NCBI GenBank assembly: GCA_051294905.1 | Contig: CM119372.1 | Coordinates: 37,016,001 to 37,080,000, forward strand | Source: Botryllus schlosseri | Taxonomy: Eukaryota | DNA length: 64,000 bases | Direction of reading: 5' to 3' | Shown: one piece after another, positions 48,452 through 61,980 of the stretch | Layout of the letters: every line of letters starts with the position of its first letter | Position numbering within the stretch: position 1 is the first letter of the stretch | Program-made: the position numbers and the translations under genes | The notes under the pieces: generated by a model | What the model was told of the DNA's origin: nothing | Databases searched by the model: none | Seen by the model: the letters and a program-made list of their open reading frames with translations, nothing else

Positions 48452-51109
48452 CAATAGAATTTCACTTTCATTGGCTTTTCCAAGTATAGAACTTCAATAT
48501 TGCAGCAAACAATACGTTCATATTGCCAAATTTATTCCAATAGAAGCTTTTCGACTGGCTCTCTTCAGCATTGAACGCCAGTAAATGAGGTTAACGAAGT
48601 TCGAAATTTAGAAATAATTTTGTCGTTGTGACGTAATGATAATAATAATGGTTGCATTAGGAAATTAATAAATAATTAATTAATTGCTCCAACCTAACCT
48701 AACTTCTGAACAGACGCATCACTGCTGTGGATACCTGCCGAACGATTTGGATATATCGCACCTGGACGAACCCGCCGTAGGACCAGGCGGATGACCCCAG
48801 AGGACTCGTCAACTCCGACCACACAGGAACATCAAAGAGAAGATATTTCTCAACATGGCGCCTGTGCAACATCGAACTGTGGCTCACAAAACAGCTCTGC
48901 TGCAAAAGAAAAAAAGAGACACAGATGGAGTAAAGAAGAGTATAAAGAAATAATGAGATGTTACTTCTCGGCCAAACTTGAAAACTCTGCAGGAGTAGCC
49001 GAAGGAACTTTTCACACTTGGAAAAAGAGAACAAACAACTCTCCAGCCATGACTGCCAATACCCTGGCAAATATGAGACGCTGTGTAATCAAAAAATTAT
49101 CAGAACAAGAACTCGCAGAAATCGAGAGCGAAATTTGCAACAACAAAAATAGAAAATTTCGAGGCACTAGAACTTCAATTCGGAGAAGATGACCTGTATC
49201 CGCAACAACCACTTGACGACCTGAACATCACAGAGGTAGAATTACAAAATAACATCGGGCACCCGAATGAACCTACAACACCTAACGATGATGACATGTG
49301 CACGGAATTGAAATTGGAGATCAAAAATCAAATTATCGACCGAATGAACTCCACATTCGATATAAATGACAGAGTGGATTTACGTAACCGACAAATTACA
49401 AAGAAACTGAAAACTGATATTGCAGTAGCGAACAGATTTTTGACAGAAACCATACTACCTGCAATTCTAAATGAAAAACAAGGAGAAAGGCCACAATGTC
49501 ACTTAACAACTATCAACAACCTCATTTACAGAACTGCAGCAGTTATCTCAGAAAGGCACTGCAAAATACCAAGGCCTGTCAACAAAAAAAGGGAAGCCAA
49601 TGTAGAATTGAAAACAAAATCGCAAAACTAAGGTGTGACGTTGCGATACTCTCAGAACTCAAAAAAGGAAATGTTTCCCGCAAAGTAAAAAATATAGCAA
49701 AAAGAATAGAACTGGAGCACCAAACCAAACTGCAGTCAACAGAAAAAGTGACAATGTTGCAAGAAGAATTAAAAATGAGAATATGCGCCAAAGCAAAACG
49801 ATTGAAACGATATAAAAAACAAGAAACACAATATCGCCAAAACTTGCTATTTGCTTGCAAACCTGGACAATTTTTCCGAATGATGAAACAGAAGTCAAAC
49901 CACAAAATTACCAGCAGTACAATATCAGCCACTGTAGATGTGGAATCATTTTGGAAGAAAATATAGGAAGCCAAAAAATTGCACAACTCAAATGCAAATT
50001 GGATAAAAGACCTCTACACTGACCACCTACAAACACCAGAACAACAATGGTCAGAAATCACAAAACAAGAAATCAAGGAGGCCCTAAAAAGTTCACTGAA
50101 CCGGAAAGCGGCTGGCCCTGACCGGATCAAAAACTTTTGGCTAAAAAAAACTAACTACAACACATAAATACCTAGCGGCAACCAACTATGAGCTATTATC
50201 CTCAACCAAATCACACGAGATCCCAACCTGATTCACCCAAGGGATCATCTATCTTATTGCAAAAAATGAGAACACCAGGGACCCCAAAAACTACAGGCCG
50301 ATGACATGCCTGACAACCATGTACAAAATACTGACCAAAATCCTGGCAAAACGAAACGACAAACACCTAGAAAACCTTCTTCCGCCTGAGCAGAAAGGAT
50401 GCAAGGAATGCGCCCTTGGCTGTAAGGATCACCTGCTCCTTGACAAAACCATTCTTGAAAACTGCAAGAGAAGGCATACTAACCTCAGTTTGGCGCGGAT
50501 AGACTACAAAAAAGCTTTCGATTCAGTCCCTCACACATGGATACTGAACACAATCCGTAGGTACGAAATGGATCAAATCACCATCAGATTTATTGAAGGC
50601 TCAATGAAAAATTGGCATACAAAACTGCAGATCAAACATGAACAAGGTGAAACAGAAACTTGTACAATTCATATCCACAATGGTCTCTTTCAAGGCGACT
50701 CAATCTCGCCACTTCTATTCTGCCTCAGCTTAGCTCCACTCAGTGAGTTGCTGAGAAAAAATGAAACAGGATACGAGATGAAAAAACCAACAAACTCTGA
50801 AGGTCAAAAGATTCATCATCTTTTGTTCAAGGATGATCTGAAACTATACGCGAAATCCGATTCGGATAGGAATAGGATAGGACGTAGTTTATTTTTGTCC
50901 TTGATGATTTTGCGGCATATACACCGACTCATGATACACATACACACGATCTGTGCATATGCATACCATGAGTGCATGATGTGCATATGCCACTGGACAA
51001 GGAAGTGCAGATATAGCTTTTATGGCTTTCTAAGTCATGCACCCCCCCCCCCCTCCATGCTATCCCAGTAATGCATGAGCGCCAAGCAGGGAAGTCATGG
51101 ATACCAGTG

Positions 51110-51312
51110 TGTGGTGATCCGCAATTAGGCAATAATTACTTTCATCTGATTAGTTACGTTGTACAGTACAGTGTCCCCTTATCGTTACCGTGTCATTCTA
51201 TTCTCTTCTGTTCGGCTGTCAGTTGTGTTCTATGTTGCTTAAAGCCACATTGGTTACCTTTGCTTTAATAAAGCTTCAGTTAGTTATTCAACGCAATAGT
51301 CAGTTTACGACA
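51110..51312 (+). repeat. 5' LTR
   Basis: TGTGG..GACA. Inr-like TCAGTT at 51219-51224. AATAAA at 51267-51272. Confidence 0.97.
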
Positions 51313-51313
51313 A

Positions 51314-51329
51314 TTTAAGCAACATAGAA
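51314..51329 (+). other. Non-tRNA primer-binding site complementary to the element's own LTR
   Basis: TTTAAGCAACATAGAA is the exact reverse complement of TTCTATGTTGCTTAAA (51228-51243). No TGG start as expected for tRNA priming. Confidence 0.85.
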
Positions 51330-51331
51330 TT

Positions 51332-52900
51332 ATGGCAGAAAGGATTCTGAAACCAGACAAGCTCGATATCAGTCCGGACTCCGCCTCTGCTGAAAAACAG
51401 TATCAGCATTGGTAGAAGACCTTCGATAATTTTCTTTCATCATTTGATCAAGATACATTAGGCTTACCAAACGTCCTCTTTCAAGAGGATTTATCCTCTT
51501 TTTTGACTTTTTTGAAAGTGTCCTCGGAGGACGCCCTTTTGTCCTCTTTTTTGAGATTTTGTCCTCATTTTTGAAAATTTAGGTCAAATTTAGAGGAAAT
51601 TGCGAGTGATATGCCGCAAATTAGCGCAGAAGTGAAGCTCCGGCGGGTATTTCGGAGGGAAAAGCGGTGATTTCAGCTCTGAGCGAAAAGAAGACCTTTT
51701 TTTTTTTTAGTCATCCACCTGGCAATGTGGAGTAAAAAACGTGATTTTGAGATCTGAGCGGAAGTGATGACCTTTTTTTTTTTAGTCCACCGATCATGAA
51801 GTGGGGAAAATTTACGGTTTTTGAGAATTCTTCTCCAGTTTGCATGTCTGAAATTTATGAAAAAGTGTCCTCTTTTTTCATTACCAAAATATGGTAAGCC
51901 TAAGATACATAGATCGACAAGCTGAAGATCTTAACGAATTTCGTGTCGTCGTCTGTCTATTCCTATTTTGAAGAAAGTTCGACTTACGATACCGCAATAG
52001 AACTTCTCGACAAAATTTATATCAAGCAAAAGAACGAAATCTTCGTCCGCCACATGCTAGTAACTCGTATTCAGAAGCCCGAAGAGACGATCGAGGAATT
52101 TTCCCGCGTCTTGGCAGATCTAGCAAAAGATTGCATATTCAAGACTCTCTCGGCGGAAGATCAAACGTTATCAGACAGATTATTAGAAAGTGACGGGGCT
52201 GTAACCCTCGAAATGGCGATCTCAAAAGCCCGCTCATTAGAATTCGCCCAGCGAAGCTCTAGTATCTATTGCAGCACTCCATGTTCATCTGTCGGCGTCG
52301 AACCGCTGGCAAAATCTTTGAATCCTGAAGTCGAACTATCATTCGCAGAAACTCACAGTCGACTCAACGCAATGAGCAAAACAATCAAACCTGATCGGAA
52401 GTGCTTTTTTTGCGGTCAGTCATTCCACTCCCGATATAAATGTCCAGCGAAACGGAGCGAGTGTGGCTATTGTGGAGTCCTAGGTCATTATGAAGTGGTT
52501 TGCAGGAGAAAGGCCACCGACAACAGGAAAACAGTAACTGCAATGATCTCATACTTCAGCGCCATCGGAGTACCCAAATGTCTCATAAAAGCAAGAATCG
52601 TGGTTAAGATCGGCTGCCACATAACATTTGCTTTAATCGACTCCGGTTCCGCGGAAAGCTTCATAAGCACTGGATACGCCAACGAAATTGACCTGAAATC
52701 CACTCCGTACTCCTCTACGGTTACATTTGCTTCTAAATCCCATTCCCGCAAGATTGAAGAACTCACAGACCGGACATTCTTGTAAACGAAACGAAATATA
52801 CGGAATTTCCTCTTAAAGGAATGGAAGATTTATGCGCTGATGTGGTGCTTGGTCTCGATTTCATGAACTTGCATAAACGAGTCATTTTCAATATGGACGG
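51332..52900 (+). pseudogene. gag: Gypsy gag plus aspartic protease (disrupted)
   Basis: MAERILKPDKLDISPDSASAEKQYQHW*KTFDNF, interrupted by a MITE. Zinc knuckles CFFCGQSFHSRYKC and CGYCGVLGHYEVVC. Protease motif ALIDSGS. Confidence 0.9.
51459..51902. mobile_element. hAT MITE inserted in gag
   Basis: TIR TAGGCTTACCA / TGGTAAGCCTA. Perfect TSD AGATACAT. GTCCTC arrays. Confidence 0.93.
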
Positions 52901-53156
52901 AGATAAAGATACCTTGGAACTCCCTCGAGATCAGAAGTACAGTGTATGTCGAAGCACCGCAAATTTTCAAGTTTATGACACCGAATTGTAAACCGATTGC
53001 CACTAAATCCAGAAGATACAGCGAAGCCGATCTGAATTTCATTAAAGCGGAAGTTGCAAAACTCGAGAAGGAAGGAATCACCGAGCCGTCCTCATCGCCT
53101 TGGCGAGCACAGGTTCTTGTTGTAAATGACGGTCGACACAAGAAGCGCATGGTCAT

Positions 53157-55707
53157 TAGGGTTGTCCAAAATTTGGAAAATCTTAAAAATACCCCGTGAT
53201 TGTGTCTCATTCCATAGATTATTGATAAAAAATAACAATGAGCCTGAAAGAAGCTCACGGGAAAGCCGTCAAGATTTCGGCCAAAGCGTTTGAAAGTAGC
53301 TGCCCAAGAATGGGCGTGCCACCGACCATAGAACGGCGAGAAGACTAGTAATCAAATAACCACGGCCCTTGATTGGCTAATTGGCTATGCTTCAATGATC
53401 ACCACAGCAACAGCTTTTTGATTATGTGCTCAAGGAGTCTGCTAACGGTGGGATTCTGAAATCGCGTTCTTGGTAGGTTGGCAGATGATGATTTAAGATT
53501 AATTCAGGACTTGTTAAGGTACGAAATACATGATGAACAATCAACAGCTGCTTCACAGAAACTTCTACAGCATGACTGCTTTATTGGAAGGAAACGGCTG
53601 TAGCCTACATGCCGTGTTTTCATCGAGAGAAAGCAAAGGCGCTTATGCAAGCGGTAAACGAATTCCCCGTTTGGAAAGGATCCATCATCAGTGAACACAA
53701 ATATAAAGCTTAACAATGACACGATACCGTAATTTGTGTGATCTTATTAGGCTCAAGCTGTAATATATAGGTGAGGTTTTGAATGATATTGGAATCGGCT
53801 GAATCAGCGGGTTATGCTTGGCACTCATCAGATGCTTACAGTAAATTGAATTCACTTGTAAGTGTTGCTAAAGTCCCTAATGATAACGCACACTCGCACA
53901 GGCTATGCCCAATGTGGTATGTCAAAGTCCCTATTGATCCCGCAGAAAATAGGTGTAAAGATAATCACAGACTATACTGCATAGTATCCAGCATAGTTTG
54001 GACATGATATCCAGCATTGTGCTTACTTTACACCTCTTTTCTGCAGCATCATTAAGGACTTTGACAACACTTACATGTGAATTCAATTTGCTGTGAGTAT
54101 AACTGCCAAGCACAACCGGCTGATTCAGTCAATCCCTAGAGCAGTGGTCGGGAACCTATGGCTCGCGAGCCATATATGGCTCTTTTGGGTATAAGCTATG
54201 GCTCTTTGCCAAATGTTTATTTTTGTACTGAATTGATCAATATTGCAGCGACTTGTAGGTAAATTTCATCACGGCCAAAATAATTATTCTCGTGGCAGTA
54301 TAAACATGTCTTGAGAGGTAAAGACAATGCTGTCTTCATGTTTAGGGGATCGGACCCCCTCTTTTCAGAATCATCAGATTTATGTTACTGTCACGTCGGC
54401 GGCCAATATCCGTCGCGAATTCTATGTACCCAACTCGAAATCTTGAATTGTGCGATATGTTGATTAATCAAAGAGCATATAGCAGACATGGCGACGCTCA
54501 TTTCAAAACGCAGTTTTCAAATACACATTATCTTTCTGATCTACGGCGCGAAATGAACTGTTGTGGATTTGACATTCACAATTACAAACTCGAATTACAA
54601 ACAACGCCGTAGCTATCCACGTTCTAGATTGGTAAGTATAACTCTGTTTAGTACCGGCAATAAATTGCATGCGCGTGGCGCAACGTTATGTTACTGCCGA
54701 ATACTTTGAGAATAGAGAGGTCAATAAGTATTTAGATTTTCGGAATCAGTGTGACAGTCACACTCGATTAATATCAGTTACAATAAATTATAAGCTACTT
54801 ACGGTGAATCGCGTTATTAATGGTGAGGCTTGGCCCGTCTGTGCCTTACCTCTCGTTTCGAGCTGTATTTTCGAACAGTAAATACCAGTTTTTACAGAGA
54901 AAATATGGCACACACGAGGAATCCCATAGTGAGTTCGAATGAGTGCTACCATGACGTCACGAATTTTCAATTATGACGTAACAGTTGATTAACATGTATG
55001 GCTCTTTGGGAGTTGAGATAGAAAAAATAGGGCCAATATGGCTCTTCGGACAAAAAAGGTTCCCGACCACTGCCCTAGAGCATTCAAAATATCAACTATA
55101 TACTACAACTAGAGTCCAATAAGCTCACACAAAGTATAGTGTCATGGTCAAGCTTTATATTTGTATTCACTGATGATGGATCCCTTCTGAAACGGGGAAT
55201 TCGTTCACTACTTGCATAAGCGTCTCTGCTTTCCCTCGATGAAAACACTGCATGTAGGCTACAGCCGTTTCCTTCACAATAAAGCAGTCATGCTGTAGAA
55301 GTTTTTGTGAAGCAGCTGTTGATTGTTCATCATGTATTTCGTACCTTAACATGTCCTGAATTAATCTTAAATCATCATCTGCCAACCTACCAACAACGCG
55401 ATTTCAGAATCCCCGCCGGTAGCAGACCCCTTGAGCACATAATCAGCAAGTTGTTGCTGTGGTGATCATTGAAGCATAGCCAATTAGCCAATCAGGAGCC
55501 GTGGTTATTTGATTACTAGTCTTCTCGCCGTTCTATGGTCGGTGGCACGCCCATTCCTGGGCAGCTACTTTAAAACGCTTTGGCCGAAATCTTAACGGCT
55601 TTCCCGTGAGCTTCTTTTGGGCTCATTGTTATTTTTTATCAATAATCTATGGAATGAGACACAATCACGGGGTATTTTTAAGATTTTCCAAATTTTGGAC
55701 AACCCTA
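53157..55707. mobile_element. hATm-like foldback element with ~0.7-kb inverted arms, inserted in the Gypsy RT
   Basis: TIR TAGGGTTGTCCAAAATTTGG.. extends as long inverted arms. Perfect TSD ATGGTCAT. Both arms encode transposase-like remnants (..KVLNDAAEKR / ..KVPNDNA). Confidence 0.92.
54142..55072. mobile_element. hAT MITE nested in the foldback element
   Basis: TIR CAGTGGTCGGGAACC / GGTTCCCGACCACTG. Perfect TSD CCCTAGAG. ATGGCTC arrays. Confidence 0.93.
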
Positions 55708-57993
55708 ATGGTCATTGACTTCTCTCAGACGGTCAACAGGTATACCTTACTAGACGCCTATCCTTTACCAAGGATCGATCACCAAGTCAACAACATCGCC
55801 CGTTTCAAAGTTTTCAGTACGTTAGATCTGAAGTCCGCGTATTATCAAGTGGCACTATCACCTGATGATCGTCCGTATACGGCATTCGAAGCCGCTGGCA
55901 ATCTTTACCAATACCGTCGATTACCATTTGGAGTCACCAACGGAGTTTCGGCATTTCAAAGAATAATAGACAACGTCATAAAAGACAACAAGCTCACCGG
56001 CACCTAAGCTTATCTGGATAATATTACTGTTTGCGGTATGGATAAGGACGACCACGATCGAAATCTCGACGCGTTTCTCAATGCCGCTCAGCGATTCAGC
56101 CTCACTTTCAATCATTCGAAGTCGATCATCCGTTCTACGGAAATAGACTTGCTGGGTTATCGCGTGTCGCATGGCGTGATCAAACCGGACCCATAAAGAC
56201 TAAACCCGTTAATCGATTTATCGCCGCCACGCAACAACCCAGAACTAAAACGAGTGTGTGGCATGTTTGCCTACTATGCCAAATGGTTGCCCATCTTTTC
56301 CGACAAAATCCGTCCTTTGTATTCAGTCGAAAAATTTCCGCTTTCCGAAAATGCATCTATCGCATTTAACGATTTAAAACGCGAGTTAGTTGACGCGTCT
56401 CTTGGTAGGATCGACGACACAGGTCCGTTCACAATAGAGTGTGATGCTTCTACTGCAGCCATTGCAGCTATCCTTAGTCAAAACGGTCGACCGGTCGCGT
56501 TCATGTCAAAAGCACTATCGCCAAGTGAAATACGCTACTCCTCTGTTGAGAAAGAAGCGTCCTCAATTATCGCGGCAGTTCGTAAATGGGCTCATTTTTT
56601 ACATGGCTGACATTTTACTCTTGTTACTGACCAGAGATCTGTCGCGTTCATGTTTGACGGCAAATCTCAAGGTAAAATCAAAAATACCAAAATCCAGCTG
56701 TGGCGTGTCGAACTTGGTCAATTTTCGTATGATATCGTACACAAACCGGGGGCACTGAATGTTGCGGCTGATATGTTTTCGCGGACCCCATCTTCGTATT
56801 GCGCATCGATTTCGCCCTGTGAGTTGGGTTCTAATCTAAGTCGCATACACGACACTCAGGGTCATCCAGGAGTCACAAGGCTGCATCATTTCGTTCGTTC
56901 GAAAAATCTCTCGTTCTCGCTAAATGACGTTCGTGAGACCTGCGCTCGTTGCCGCATTTGTGCTCAAATCAAACCAAATTTTCACATGTGCAATCCGCAA
57001 GTGCTTGTGAAAGCAACGAAACCTGGGGAAAGAATCATCGTAGACTTCAAAGGGCCTTTGAAATCTAACAAATCCCCTTTCATATTCGTTGTCATAGACG
57101 AATATAGTCGTTTTCCGTTCGCCTTTCCATGTCGCAACACTTCCGCGCTAACCGTCATTTCGTGTTTGTCGACACTATTCGCTGTTTTTGGACTTCCGGG
57201 ATACGTACACAGTGACCGAGGCACCGCTTTCGTGTCCAAGGAAGTCAAGGATTATTTACATTCTCGCGGGGTTGCAACTAGCTTCACTGCGCCTTACCAT
57301 CCAACAGGAAATTCGCAGTGCGAACGCCTTTATCAAACATTATGGCGAACTATCAAACTCATTTTGAAATCAACCGGAGTCTCAAAATCATGTTGGGCTG
57401 ACGCCCTTCCTCATGCGCAACATTCAGTTCGATCGCTACTTTGCACGTCAACTAATTCAACACCACATGACCGATTTTTTCCTCTCCAAGAAAAAGTATA
57501 GTGGGGAATAGCGTGCCATCCTGGCTATTGACTCCTGGGCCAGTTTTCTTACGCAAATTCGTCAGAAACAAGGGCGACGAACTATGTTCTGAGGTCGAAC
57601 TTCTTGAAGCCAACCCGACTTACGCACGTGTTCGTTTTCCTAACGGCCCCGAGTCCAACGTCTCACTCAACGATTTGGCCCGTTTTCCTACTGGAGAAGA
57701 AACACCGTCGACTAATCCTGAAACGAAACAAGCTGAACCTTGTTCTGTTGATATCGATGGCCACGAGCCAAGTCGCGAAGTTTCTAACGTTGAGTTGAAG
57801 TCATCTGATGAAGAGCCTCAAGAATCTAACCATTCAGAGGATGTACCAGATGATTCGAGTAGAAATCTAGACGTCGAGCTTCGGCGTTCAACTAGAGTTA
57901 GGCGCCAGCCGGATCGGTATGGTAATTTTGTTAGTCATTGATGTTTTTGTGTCATTTTTATATGTGAATTTACAAAATGCAAGGGAGGTGGAA

Positions 57994-58196
57994 TGTGGTG
58001 ATCCGCAATTAGGCAATAATTACTTTCATCTGATTAGTTACGTTGTACAGTACAGTGTCGCCTTATCGTTACCATGTCATTCTATTCTCTTCTGTTCTGC
58101 TGTCAGTTGTGTTCTATGTTGCTTAAAGCCACATTGGTTACCTTTGCTTTAATAAAGCTTCAGTTAGTTATTCAACGCAATAGTCAGTTTACGACA
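57994..58196 (+). repeat. 3' LTR
   Basis: 200/203 identical to the 5' LTR. Preceded by a polypurine tract. Confidence 0.97.
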
Positions 58197-59585
58197 AAGT
58201 GTTACTAATCAGGTCTTTGGTCTGACCCGGCCGGGGATCGAACCCACGACCTACCGATCAAGAAGCCGGACGCTTCACCATTACGCCATCTTGTCGGTGT
58301 CAATAACCAAATGAAAATTGTTCATGAGTTTTTGTAAGATATAAAAATGAAATTTGGCTTGGATAAATGCTCAAAACTTACCATACGACGCGGAAGAGGA
58401 CCAGCACAGGCGATATGAACTTCAGAATGGGTGAAACCATAACATAATTGGATGCTGAAGGTCATTATAAATATCTAGGGATCTGTGAAAGCGACAACAA
58501 TAAACATGCTGCAATGAAATCATGTCTAAAAAAAGAATACATTAGCAAGCTCAAATCCGTCCTCAAAACTGAACTCAATTCCTAAAACAAAATCAATGCC
58601 ATAAACAGTCTTGCAGTGCCAGTCTTTGGTGTGGTGAACTGGCGCGAATATGAAATTAAAAAATTGGACACAAAGACGAGAACACTGATGACAATGCACC
58701 ACATGCATCACCCAAAATCTGATACACGAAGACTGTACATCTCCAGAAAAAAGGTGGTCCAGGACTACAAGAAATTAACAAACTTTCAAAACAGAAATCA
58801 TCGGCTTGTCACAATACATCAACAACAGCGATAACATTTACTGCAAACTCATTGCACAGTTAGACAAACAGCGCAAAACAAAATCTCTGAGCTATCGTCA
58901 CGACAAGTACGTCAGAGAAGTCAACATGGAAACAGCTAACCTGTACACTGCTGAAAACACTGAGGTTGCCGAACTCACAACAACAGCAAAAGCAGCACGA
59001 GTTCAACACAAAAATGCAACGCTCAAAATGAGAGAAACGAGATGGGAGTCGATGCCTCATCAGTCTTCATGGACATTGGACAGCACTAGAAGTTAACTTC
59101 ACAGCCCCATGTAGACGGGCTTTCATGGACCCGGCTCTCCAGCTCTGGCCTGAAACCGGCAAGCGAAGTATTCATTTTCGCAGCACAAGACCAATCGCTC
59201 CCTACAAAATACTATCGCAAAAGAATTCTGAAGCAAAACACGGACGGCAAATGCAGAATGTGCCACAACCAAAATGGAACTTTAGCTCATCTCATGTCCG
59301 GCTGTGGTGCACTTGCAGCTACCGAATACACATGGAGACACAATAGAATTGGTCACTACATTCATCTTGAATTATGCAAACATATTAACAGCAACACTTC
59401 AACAAAAAATTAGTATGATTACAGCCCAGCACCAGTGACAAAAAACGACCAAGTAAAAATTCTGTGGGATGTACCAGTTATAACTGACCGCGAAATCAGG
59501 AGCAACCTCAGGGATATGATAATCAAACTAAAAAAGAAAATAGAATGCTTGTTCATTGAACTGGCTGTCCATCTGATCACAATCT

Positions 59586-61508: not shown

Positions 61509-61980
61509 ATACGGTTGCCATACGTCCAGCATTTCACGGAGATATCCGGAATTTCACGGTTCAAACTGCATCCGGGAGAAAAAGCTGAAATATGTCCAAA
61601 TGTCTGGAATTTTGAAGGCTTGAAGGAAGCTGAAATTTTTTTCGAAAATCAACATAAACAGTATCTTATTTTGGGAAGATTTATGGCACTCGAAATTTTT
61701 TCGCGCTGCGCTGTGTTTTTACTAGTTTTATTATGAGTATCCTTGTCCAGAGTTGGCTTAAGTGTTGTTTTGGTCCTGGCTACAACATACGATCACATAA
61801 AAATCAAAATAAACAATATCTTATTTTGGAGAAGATTTATGGCACTCGAAATTTTTTTCGCGCTGCGCGCAATTTCGTGTCGCCTATACTCGTTTTTTAC
61901 TAGTTTTACTATGAGTACGCTTGTCCAGAGTTGGCTTAAGTGTTGTTTCGGTCCTGGATACAACATACGATCACATATCT
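61509..61980. mobile_element. hAT-like left end with an internal ~150-bp tandem duplication
   Basis: TACGGTTGCCATACGTCC resembles 20022 TAAGGTTGCCATACGTCC. ~61650-61800 is repeated at ~61805-61976. Confidence 0.55.

Follow-up and report, generated by a model that had tools for sequence, protein, structure and literature searches.

Complementarity between primer-binding site and LTR suggests self-primed reverse transcription in a compact Ty3/Gypsy clade of Botryllus schlosseri and other animals

To our knowledge, priming of reverse transcription by an element's own RNA has been shown at the bench only for the fission-yeast retrotransposons Tf1 and Tf2, and elsewhere it has been inferred, mostly for chromoviruses and for some Copia lineages. 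Tf1 has a single gag-pol open reading frame (ORF) and 5-bp target-site duplications, and the vertebrate Tf1/sushi group is reportedly the subject of Butler et al. 2001. Here we analyze a Ty3/Gypsy element from a stretch of Botryllus schlosseri DNA (assembly GCA_051294905.1, contig CM119372.1, positions 37,016,001 to 37,080,000 of the forward strand; the whole 64,000 nucleotides [nt] are called the window below), in which the place of a transfer RNA (tRNA) primer site is taken by a sequence complementary to the element's own long terminal repeat (LTR). The closest described precedent is again Tf1, for which a passage of PMC7175516 states that the RNA's 11 initial bases pair with the primer site, that RNase H cuts between bases 11 and 12, and that a U5-IR-like structure helps.

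On the basis of complementarity between LTR and primer site, self-priming has been described or predicted for the Tf1/sushi elements of yeast and vertebrates and for Tcn1 of fungi and non-seed plants (excerpts of PMC6317226 and PMC7175516), and further fungal cases are listed in a section of PMC6934838. The same architecture led to such a prediction for the TAR and Houba Ty1/Copia elements of plants (excerpt of PMC6317226), which differ from the present element in superfamily and domain order. A survey of Culex elements gives tRNA primer sites only (PMC3286476). Our literature search found no link of self-priming to Mag, SURL, Cigr-1, or other chromodomain-less animal Gypsy elements, and it returned no published account of the way in which the Mag C and Cigr-1 clades are primed; older primary papers and Repbase lie outside that search, and a prior description is possible.

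A sequence-only reading of the window had proposed that the bases following the 5' LTR are a perfect 16-nt reverse complement of an internal LTR segment. Rereading of the sequence and a repeat search both bear this out, and the initiator-like motif, the target, the AATAAA hexamer, the primer site, and the gag ATG at 51332 all lie where that reading had placed them. The features of this leader region are as follows.

51110-51312, plus strand: 5' LTR, 203 nt, termini TGTGGT...ACGACA, 3 mismatches to the 3' LTR
51219-51224, plus strand: initiator-like TCAGTT, candidate transcript start, 4 nt upstream of the target, with its A at 51221 lying 7 nt before the target
51228-51243, plus strand: target of the primer site and proposed self-primer, reading TTCTATGTTGCTTAAA; ends in AAA and is followed by GCC
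51259-51274, plus strand: second, diverged copy of the target region, TTGCTTTAATAAAGCT, holding the only AATAAA of the LTR (51267-51272)
51313, plus strand: one-base spacer, A, between LTR end and primer site; A in most relatives and T in a few
51314-51329, plus strand: primer-binding site, reading TTTAAGCAACATAGAA; perfect complement of 51228-51243, without TGG
51332-51415, plus strand: start of gag-pol, read by eye from the ATG to a premature in-frame TAG (51413-51415), where an intact copy has a lysine codon

The LTR pair aligns as 51110-51313 and 57994-58197 with 3 mismatches; because relatives show 5-bp target-site duplications and TGT..ACA termini, we take the LTR proper to be 51110-51312, with the spacer at 51313 and the primer site from 51314. 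The primer site opens with TTTAAGC, no tRNA-type TGG start is found next to the 5' LTR, and the gag ATG follows 2 nt past the site. Among inverted repeats of at least 9 nt in 51100-51345, this is the only one, with arms of 16 nt that are 100% complementary and 70 nt apart. A chance origin of the match was rejected, as its expectation, for a fixed 16-mer at an offset of 0-2 with a perfect complement within the 203-nt LTR, is ~1e-7 (our own arithmetic: ~190 x 3 x 4^-16). The duplex also dominates the predicted leader fold: the minimum-energy structure of RNA 51221-51335 contains it at -28.2 kcal/mol, with a z-score of -3.4 and none of 200 shuffled sequences as stable.

The genome in which further copies were sought comprises 495 Mb in 219 contigs. 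It yielded at least 41 matches to the LTR plus leader, 18 of which hold the LTR, primer site, and gag start. The standard unit of the family is 4146 bp long and carries one gag-pol ORF of ~1222 amino acids (aa); an uninterrupted ORF of ~1240 codons is present in 2 of the 12 full copies fetched, and four full-length matches without stops were listed in a protein search. All eight in-register copies have perfect 5-bp target-site duplications, and their LTRs differ at none of 203 positions in five copies, at one in one copy, and at four in two; the family is young and was recently active. Both 16-mers are unchanged in 15 of the 18 5' copies, and the one or two substitutions seen in L008, L015, and L016 are as expected of decay after insertion. 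Covariation within the family is uninformative because its members are too uniform. Exact copies of the 16-mers (71 listed, not each inspected) are either target/primer-site pairs ~86 nt apart on opposite strands or single occurrences. Separately, contig G000 C14 holds three exact 16-mers on the same strand, at 17180717, 17190636, and 17200555; their spacing of 9919 bp suggests a tandem array containing an LTR of this family. At another copy, contigs of runs X1 and X2 that match the flank (L032:1-101) extend past position 101 without the element and at high depth, which points to a polymorphic insertion or to a flank that is repetitive.

Variation informative for the pairing comes from sister elements in the same genome, which a protein search recovered at 44-61% identity and which have the same size and a single ORF. 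We examined 26 such loci, 20 of them whole and 6 by their ends; their LTRs measure 158-260 nt, with 99-100% identity between the two members of most pairs. Directly after the LTR's ACA and one further A, 21 of the 26 have bases that form a perfect duplex of 12-19 nt with an LTR site located 35-65 nt before the primer site. One locus (L071) shows a 9-nt duplex, and four decayed copies (L049, L050, L051, and L057) carry one substitution each in a pair that matches apart from it. The paired sequences are family specific (e.g., TTTAGTGAATAAAA and TTTTAGTCAATAAAA), each with its matching primer site, and a G/C difference between the targets of L065 and L069 is mirrored by C/G in their primer sites. 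The duplex of L048 is 19 nt long versus 16 nt in L047, and a block of 3 bases at the primer site's far end distinguishes the two, as would fit a primer site recopied from the primer during plus-strand synthesis.

Covariation between primer site and LTR, which the sequence-only reading had named as a check on its proposal, is thus seen: complementarity is kept through compensatory changes in sister families as well as in other organisms. A 19-pair helix imposed on 17 relatives is 86.5% paired, with 12 of the 19 pairs changed on both sides, and its covariation score of 0.322 (versus 0.128 +/- 0.017 after shuffling) was reached in none of 500 shuffles. Sliding the helix partners by 1-3 columns leaves only 31-54% paired. 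This count used 17 of the 21 aligned rows, and the family of the window element was left out because MAFFT aligned its second, AATAAA-bearing copy, rather than its target, to the target of the relatives. Unaided, RNAalifold predicts a 12-pair core of the helix with 7 compensatory pairs, and 12 family leaders fold with z-scores from -1.2 to -5.5.

Pooling of the loci gave 36 distinct target/primer-site pairs, of which three (L075, L080, and L099) are artefacts of sequence ends and one or two (L137, perhaps L084) are doubtful, leaving ~31 rows. In every row kept, the first base of the primer site pairs with the last base of the target and lies one base past the terminal CA of the LTR, although the pooling script required this CA+1 placement, so that the abutment is built into its listing. 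None of the primer sites listed for the window family and its relatives begins with TGG. With ~30 different primer sites each matching its own LTR, the earlier proposal that the site is not a match to a tRNA 3' end stands, the host tRNA set being outside this comparison. The targets share further features: over the 36 rows, A occupies position -1 in 36, -2 in 33, and -3 in 32; the base after the target mostly opens a GCC or an ACC; A, G, and T are found at -11, -10, and -9 in 27, 31, and 27 rows, respectively; and most targets contain AATAAA, ATTAAA, or AGTAAA. Within the targets of the sister families, CAGTT, TAGTT, or AAGTT is present. Because the ATG follows the LTR after a gap of only 2-54 nt across families, there is no room for another primer site.

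The window family deviates from this composition in one respect. MAFFT matches the target of the relatives to its second site, TTGCTTTAATAAAGC (51259-51274), and not to the site that pairs, TTGCTTAAAGCC (51234-51246). The two sites look like products of a local duplication, the first of which kept the pairing and lost the hexamer while the second kept AATAAA; primer and poly(A) roles thus seem to have been split in this family. L045 is akin to it in having a separate AATAAA 9 nt past its target, and L103, from another organism, has a target much like that of the window element with ATTAAA intact.

Beyond this genome, a search with the region from reverse transcriptase (RT) to integrase identified 1385 relatives among 8000 database candidates. 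Identity is 52-79% for the best 120 of these, most of them ~1200 aa long and from ~4-kb contigs, and the named records are those of Ciona, Biomphalaria, Mytilus, Palaemon, Armadillidium, and Trichuris. Scanning of metagenome contigs yielded 80 loci, 39 of which combine a long ORF with 150 nt or more of upstream sequence; 19 with a gag-type N terminus were counted, and the other 20, which begin at internal methionines, were not, although one of them (L088) has a 14-nt stem. The best stem in the 300 nt before the ATG is 10-18 nt long in 18 of the 19 gag-type loci and 9 nt in one, versus a mean of 6.2-7.9 nt and a maximum of 13 nt in control windows of coding sequence (30 per locus). The 3' arm of the stem comes after CA plus one or two bases. 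Compensatory changes separate L076 from L077 and L093 from L094, and the permuted contigs L082, L112, and L120 have the same layout. A search of viral contigs for related loci returned 53 pattern matches and no relatives. Use of the ~4-kb metagenome contigs as transcripts was rejected, since they are circularly permuted DNA-type assemblies, and their ends were not used as RNA ends; the contig of L080 ends at the exact target/loop junction, i.e., the proposed cut site, which we judge coincidental, other contigs being permuted at arbitrary points. A metagenome relative at 42% identity (L115) has an LTR of only ~90 nt, a 12-nt duplex between primer site and LTR, and a target without a poly(A)-like hexamer.

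In the protein of these elements, gag is followed by protease, RT, RNase H, and integrase. P0001, the unaltered 1222-aa ORF of one copy, matches the Pfam families for protease, RVT_1, RNase H, integrase zinc-binding, and integrase core domains, and its best solved relative is the Ty3 Gag-Pol (E = 6.6e-62). The protease-RT-RNase H-integrase order and an RT nearest to the Ty3 type place the family in Ty3/Gypsy (Metaviridae). Two features of the earlier description, a zinc-knuckle gag and the lack of a chromodomain, are borne out: two CCHC knuckles are visible by eye in the intact copy, and PF00385 finds no match at E values up to 1 in six proteins of the clade and is carried by none of the 120 best relatives. 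A Tf2-type SH3 domain likewise gave no match in the six proteins at E values up to 1. The proposed position outside the Tf1 group appears partly supported, the missing chromodomain being the one character that speaks for it. A Ciona intestinalis protein is 57% identical from RT to integrase. The clade is similar to Mag C or Cigr-1 in how long its LTRs are, in its termini, and in the size of its unit: its short LTRs (~90-300 nt) with termini TGTGGTGA or TGTTGTAT and YCANAACA recall the Mag C clade (SURL), for which Table 3 of PMC3601003 gives an average LTR of 174 nt and att motifs TGTNATRT and AYANAACA, and its ~4.1-kb units with a single ORF recall Mag C and also Cigr-1, which an excerpt of PMC6238403 describes as a Gypsy clade of Ciona.

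The layout of these leaders, a duplex that abuts exactly on the LTR end, the lack of a tRNA-type site, and covariation across the clade lead us to conclude that the clade probably primes minus-strand DNA by a 5' fold-back of its own LTR transcript, as Tf1 does, instead of with a tRNA. Priming is favored over a hairpin for masking or packaging because the last target base has as its partner the base that opens the site, one base past the LTR, and this register is where minus-strand synthesis must begin to give the observed LTR end. We infer the transcript start, the folding in cis, the RNase H cut, and the extent of the repeated region (R) of the LTR along the following lines. The genomic RNA would start at, or a few bases upstream of, the target (51228-51243), and its 5' end would fold onto the primer site (51314-51329), closing a 70-nt loop with the rest of R and U5. 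The RNase H of the element would then cut past the terminal AAA of the target (51243|51244). The 3'-OH created by this cut, on a base that pairs with the opening base of the primer site, would be extended across the spacer A, then U5, and then what remains of R. Strand transfer would use the part of R between the cut and the poly(A) site; R would comprise the target and the sequence up to the poly(A) site, with U5 as the remainder. In most relatives, where the hexamer lies within the target, one short element might serve as both primer and poly(A) signal, and the pairing may mask the 5' copy of the signal. The conserved AGT at 11-9 nt before the cut resembles an initiator, and were its A the main start, the primer would be 11 nt long as in Tf1. 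The pairing extends further upstream with covariation, and therefore at least some transcripts should start earlier than this AGT.

Several observations weigh against a transcript that starts at the target, and the RNA reads are foremost among them. Reads of runs whose RNA type is a guessed label were mapped to the first 760 bases of one family copy, giving 16 reads from bulk RNA and 213 from a single-cell run, almost all of the latter on the LTR. Of the single-cell reads, 32 enter from foreign flank, 16 enter from the polypurine side, and 54 exit into foreign flank, so that LTR reads of this run come mostly from LTRs embedded in other transcripts; at a depth of 0-3 beyond the LTR and in the internal region, the element is barely expressed in the runs used. 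Among the reads mapped, few of them from the element, no RNA 5' end was seen at or upstream of 51228, and in four reads the template-switch oligo is joined at a position equivalent to 51270, which falls within AATAAA, 27 nt past the target. The X1 and X2 contigs were rejected as evidence on RNA ends, since the LTR start is included in them and their breaks coincide with repeats or variants. CTTAAAG, with which the target ends (TAATAAAAG in relatives), lies ~30 nt upstream of ~51270, which is the spacing of a TATA box. A TATA-like motif ~30 nt upstream of the target start occurs in only 3 of ~12 families of this genome; L047 and L048 have a TATAAAA box 28-31 nt upstream of the target start, L065 and L069 have weaker TATA-like motifs, and the other families of this genome have none. 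The conserved hexamer and the AGT at -11 to -9 indicate constraints on part of the target that are not due to pairing. A second helix, the candidate GCCU:AGGU counterpart of the U5-IR of Tf1, is weak (70.6% paired, one of four pairs changed on both sides) and in that form is absent from the window family. Finally, the proposed cleavage of the RNA duplex by RNase H is an assumption carried over from Tf1; an RNase H domain is present in these elements.

These data could instead be read as placing the target in U3, where it would overlap a TATA-like box, the poly(A) hexamer, or both, with the transcript starting downstream at ~51270 and the primer site pairing with the 3' copy of U3 or with an LTR transcript in trans; the primer would still derive from the element, without a 5' fold-back of the Tf1 type. 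The four template-switch reads and the TATA-like position of CTTAAAG and TAATAAAAG fit such an arrangement, and AATAAA at 51267-51272 would complete a coherent division into U3, an R of ~20 nt, and a U5 of ~20 nt. Nevertheless, the reads number only four and come from LTRs that continue into foreign flank instead of the primer site and gag. In families whose loops measure 21-40 nt, a start ~30 nt after the TATA-like motif would fall at or beyond the LTR end or leave an R of a few bases; in L116 and L082, the loop is 21-24 nt and leaves little room for R downstream of the target. By our own reasoning, a cut in the 3' U3 would leave strong-stop DNA without a continuous template, and the covarying pairing reaches 12-19 nt upstream, as expected of bases that are present in the folded RNA. 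We therefore regard a target in U3 as unlikely.

The duplex might alternatively be a leader hairpin with another job, namely, masking of the 5' poly(A) hexamer, packaging, or dimerization, while an unrecognized molecule serves as the primer. The poly(A) hairpin of HIV-1 masks a promoter-proximal poly(A) hexamer in this way. In most families, AATAAA, ATTAAA, or AGTAAA indeed lies in the target, and as the primer site is downstream of the 5' copy only, pairing would silence the 5' signal alone; yet the targets of the window family and of L045 are without a canonical hexamer and nonetheless keep duplexes of 16 and 13 nt. Such a hairpin gives no reason for the exact abutment at LTR end + 1 nt in all families, and the 2-54 nt between LTR and ATG show no alternative primer site. 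Masking and priming are compatible, and a hairpin without a part in priming seems to us quite improbable. Still less weight, indeed very little, attaches to binding of the site by a host tRNA, a tRNA fragment, or another small RNA, with the LTR match being secondary. Some Copia elements use internal tRNA fragments according to an excerpt of PMC6317226, but the site here is without TGG, and each of the ~30 different primer sites, of which one genome has 10 or more, matches the LTR of its own element. No tRNA was predicted by ARAGORN within the 64-kb window (the host tRNA set was not scanned), and the 71 exact 16-mers listed, not each inspected, offered target/primer-site pairs or single occurrences.

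Like Tf1 and Tf2 of Schizosaccharomyces pombe, the present clade has no tRNA primer site, its sequence after the 5' LTR is a complement of part of that element's LTR, its gag-pol is a single ORF, and its duplications measure 5 bp. The conserved AGT stands exactly 11-9 nt before the proposed cut, and the Tf1 primer is 11 nt in the passage of PMC7175516 cited above. The claim that the duplex exceeds that of Tf1 is upheld against the same source (16 versus 11 nt), the range in the clade being 11-19 nt; the clade further differs from Tf1 and Tf2 in that the primer usually holds the poly(A) hexamer, in the absence of a detected chromodomain, in its animal hosts, in its weak U5-IR-like second stem, and in being known here from sequence alone. 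With the vertebrate Tf1/sushi group and Tcn1 it shares the same kind of complementarity between LTR and primer site, but those are chromoviruses, and the present clade shows no chromodomain.

The window element itself is a decayed, 7088-bp copy of this compact Ty3/Gypsy retrotransposon. It is dead, as seen from the early in-frame TAG, two nested insertions, and further stops, and is itself no longer able to perform the proposed priming. Its remaining features are as follows.

51105-51109, strand not applicable: 5' target-site duplication CAGTG, matching the 3' copy AAGTG at 4 of 5 positions
51458-51901, strand not applicable: nested insertion 1, ~444 bp, MITE-like (resembling a miniature inverted-repeat transposable element), with short terminal inverted repeats and an 8-bp duplication
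51902-53156, plus strand: internal gag-protease remnant, 93% identical to the intact copy with 69 gap positions
53157-55707, strand not applicable: nested insertion 2, ~2.55 kb, flanked by an 8-bp duplication; inverted arms long (>300 nt)
55708-57982, plus strand: RT, RNase H, and integrase remnant, split by stops into several ORFs
57983-57993, plus strand: polypurine tract GGGAGGTGGAA, with similar tracts in relatives
57994-58196, plus strand: 3' LTR, compared as a pair with the 5' LTR
58197-58201, strand not applicable: 3' target-site duplication AAGTG, as read from the sequence

Insertion 1 lies within gag and has the look of a MITE: its terminal inverted repeats read TAGGCTTACCA..., its 8-bp duplication reads AAGATACA, and T-rich repeats lie in its interior. 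Insertion 2 has arms of 312 nt at 94% identity, then 137 nt at 98%, and further arms; a search for a matching protein family found none, and the insertion looks like a foldback or long terminal inverted repeat DNA transposon. Just upstream of the LTR element, a 279-aa open frame at 50232-51071 with an RVT_1 match (E = 2e-23) is probably a fragment of a non-LTR retrotransposon, and a run of 14 C is located at ~51044-51057, after the RVT_1 frame. Downstream of the element, an 84-nt direct repeat occurs in two copies (61716-61799 and 61894-61977) that are 94% identical and 178 nt apart.

The protein relatives named in tunicate, mollusc, crustacean, and nematode records raise a wider possibility, which we put forward tentatively and at less than even confidence: a metazoan-wide, chromodomain-less Ty3/Gypsy clade may dispense with tRNA primers altogether, with the motif T-A-G-T...A(A/T)TAAA|GCC acting at once as start region, poly(A) signal, and 11-19-nt self-primer that masks the 5' signal. 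If true, self-priming would be ancestral in Ty3/Gypsy or would have arisen again outside the Tf1/sushi chromoviruses. The type of mechanism is known; the lineage and the overlap of primer and poly(A) signal appear to be new. A large, young, and widespread animal Gypsy clade with such a layout would widen the range of tRNA-independent priming, and it bears on hairpin priming as an older state of LTR elements, an idea raised in a passage of PMC3601003. The layout would also explain why pipelines that seek tRNA primer sites would miss or mislabel such elements, and its naturally covarying families are ready matched pairs for a comparison of priming. In their hosts, these elements would escape defenses in which 3' tRNA fragments are aimed at tRNA primer sites, a defense named in the abstract of PMC7472051.

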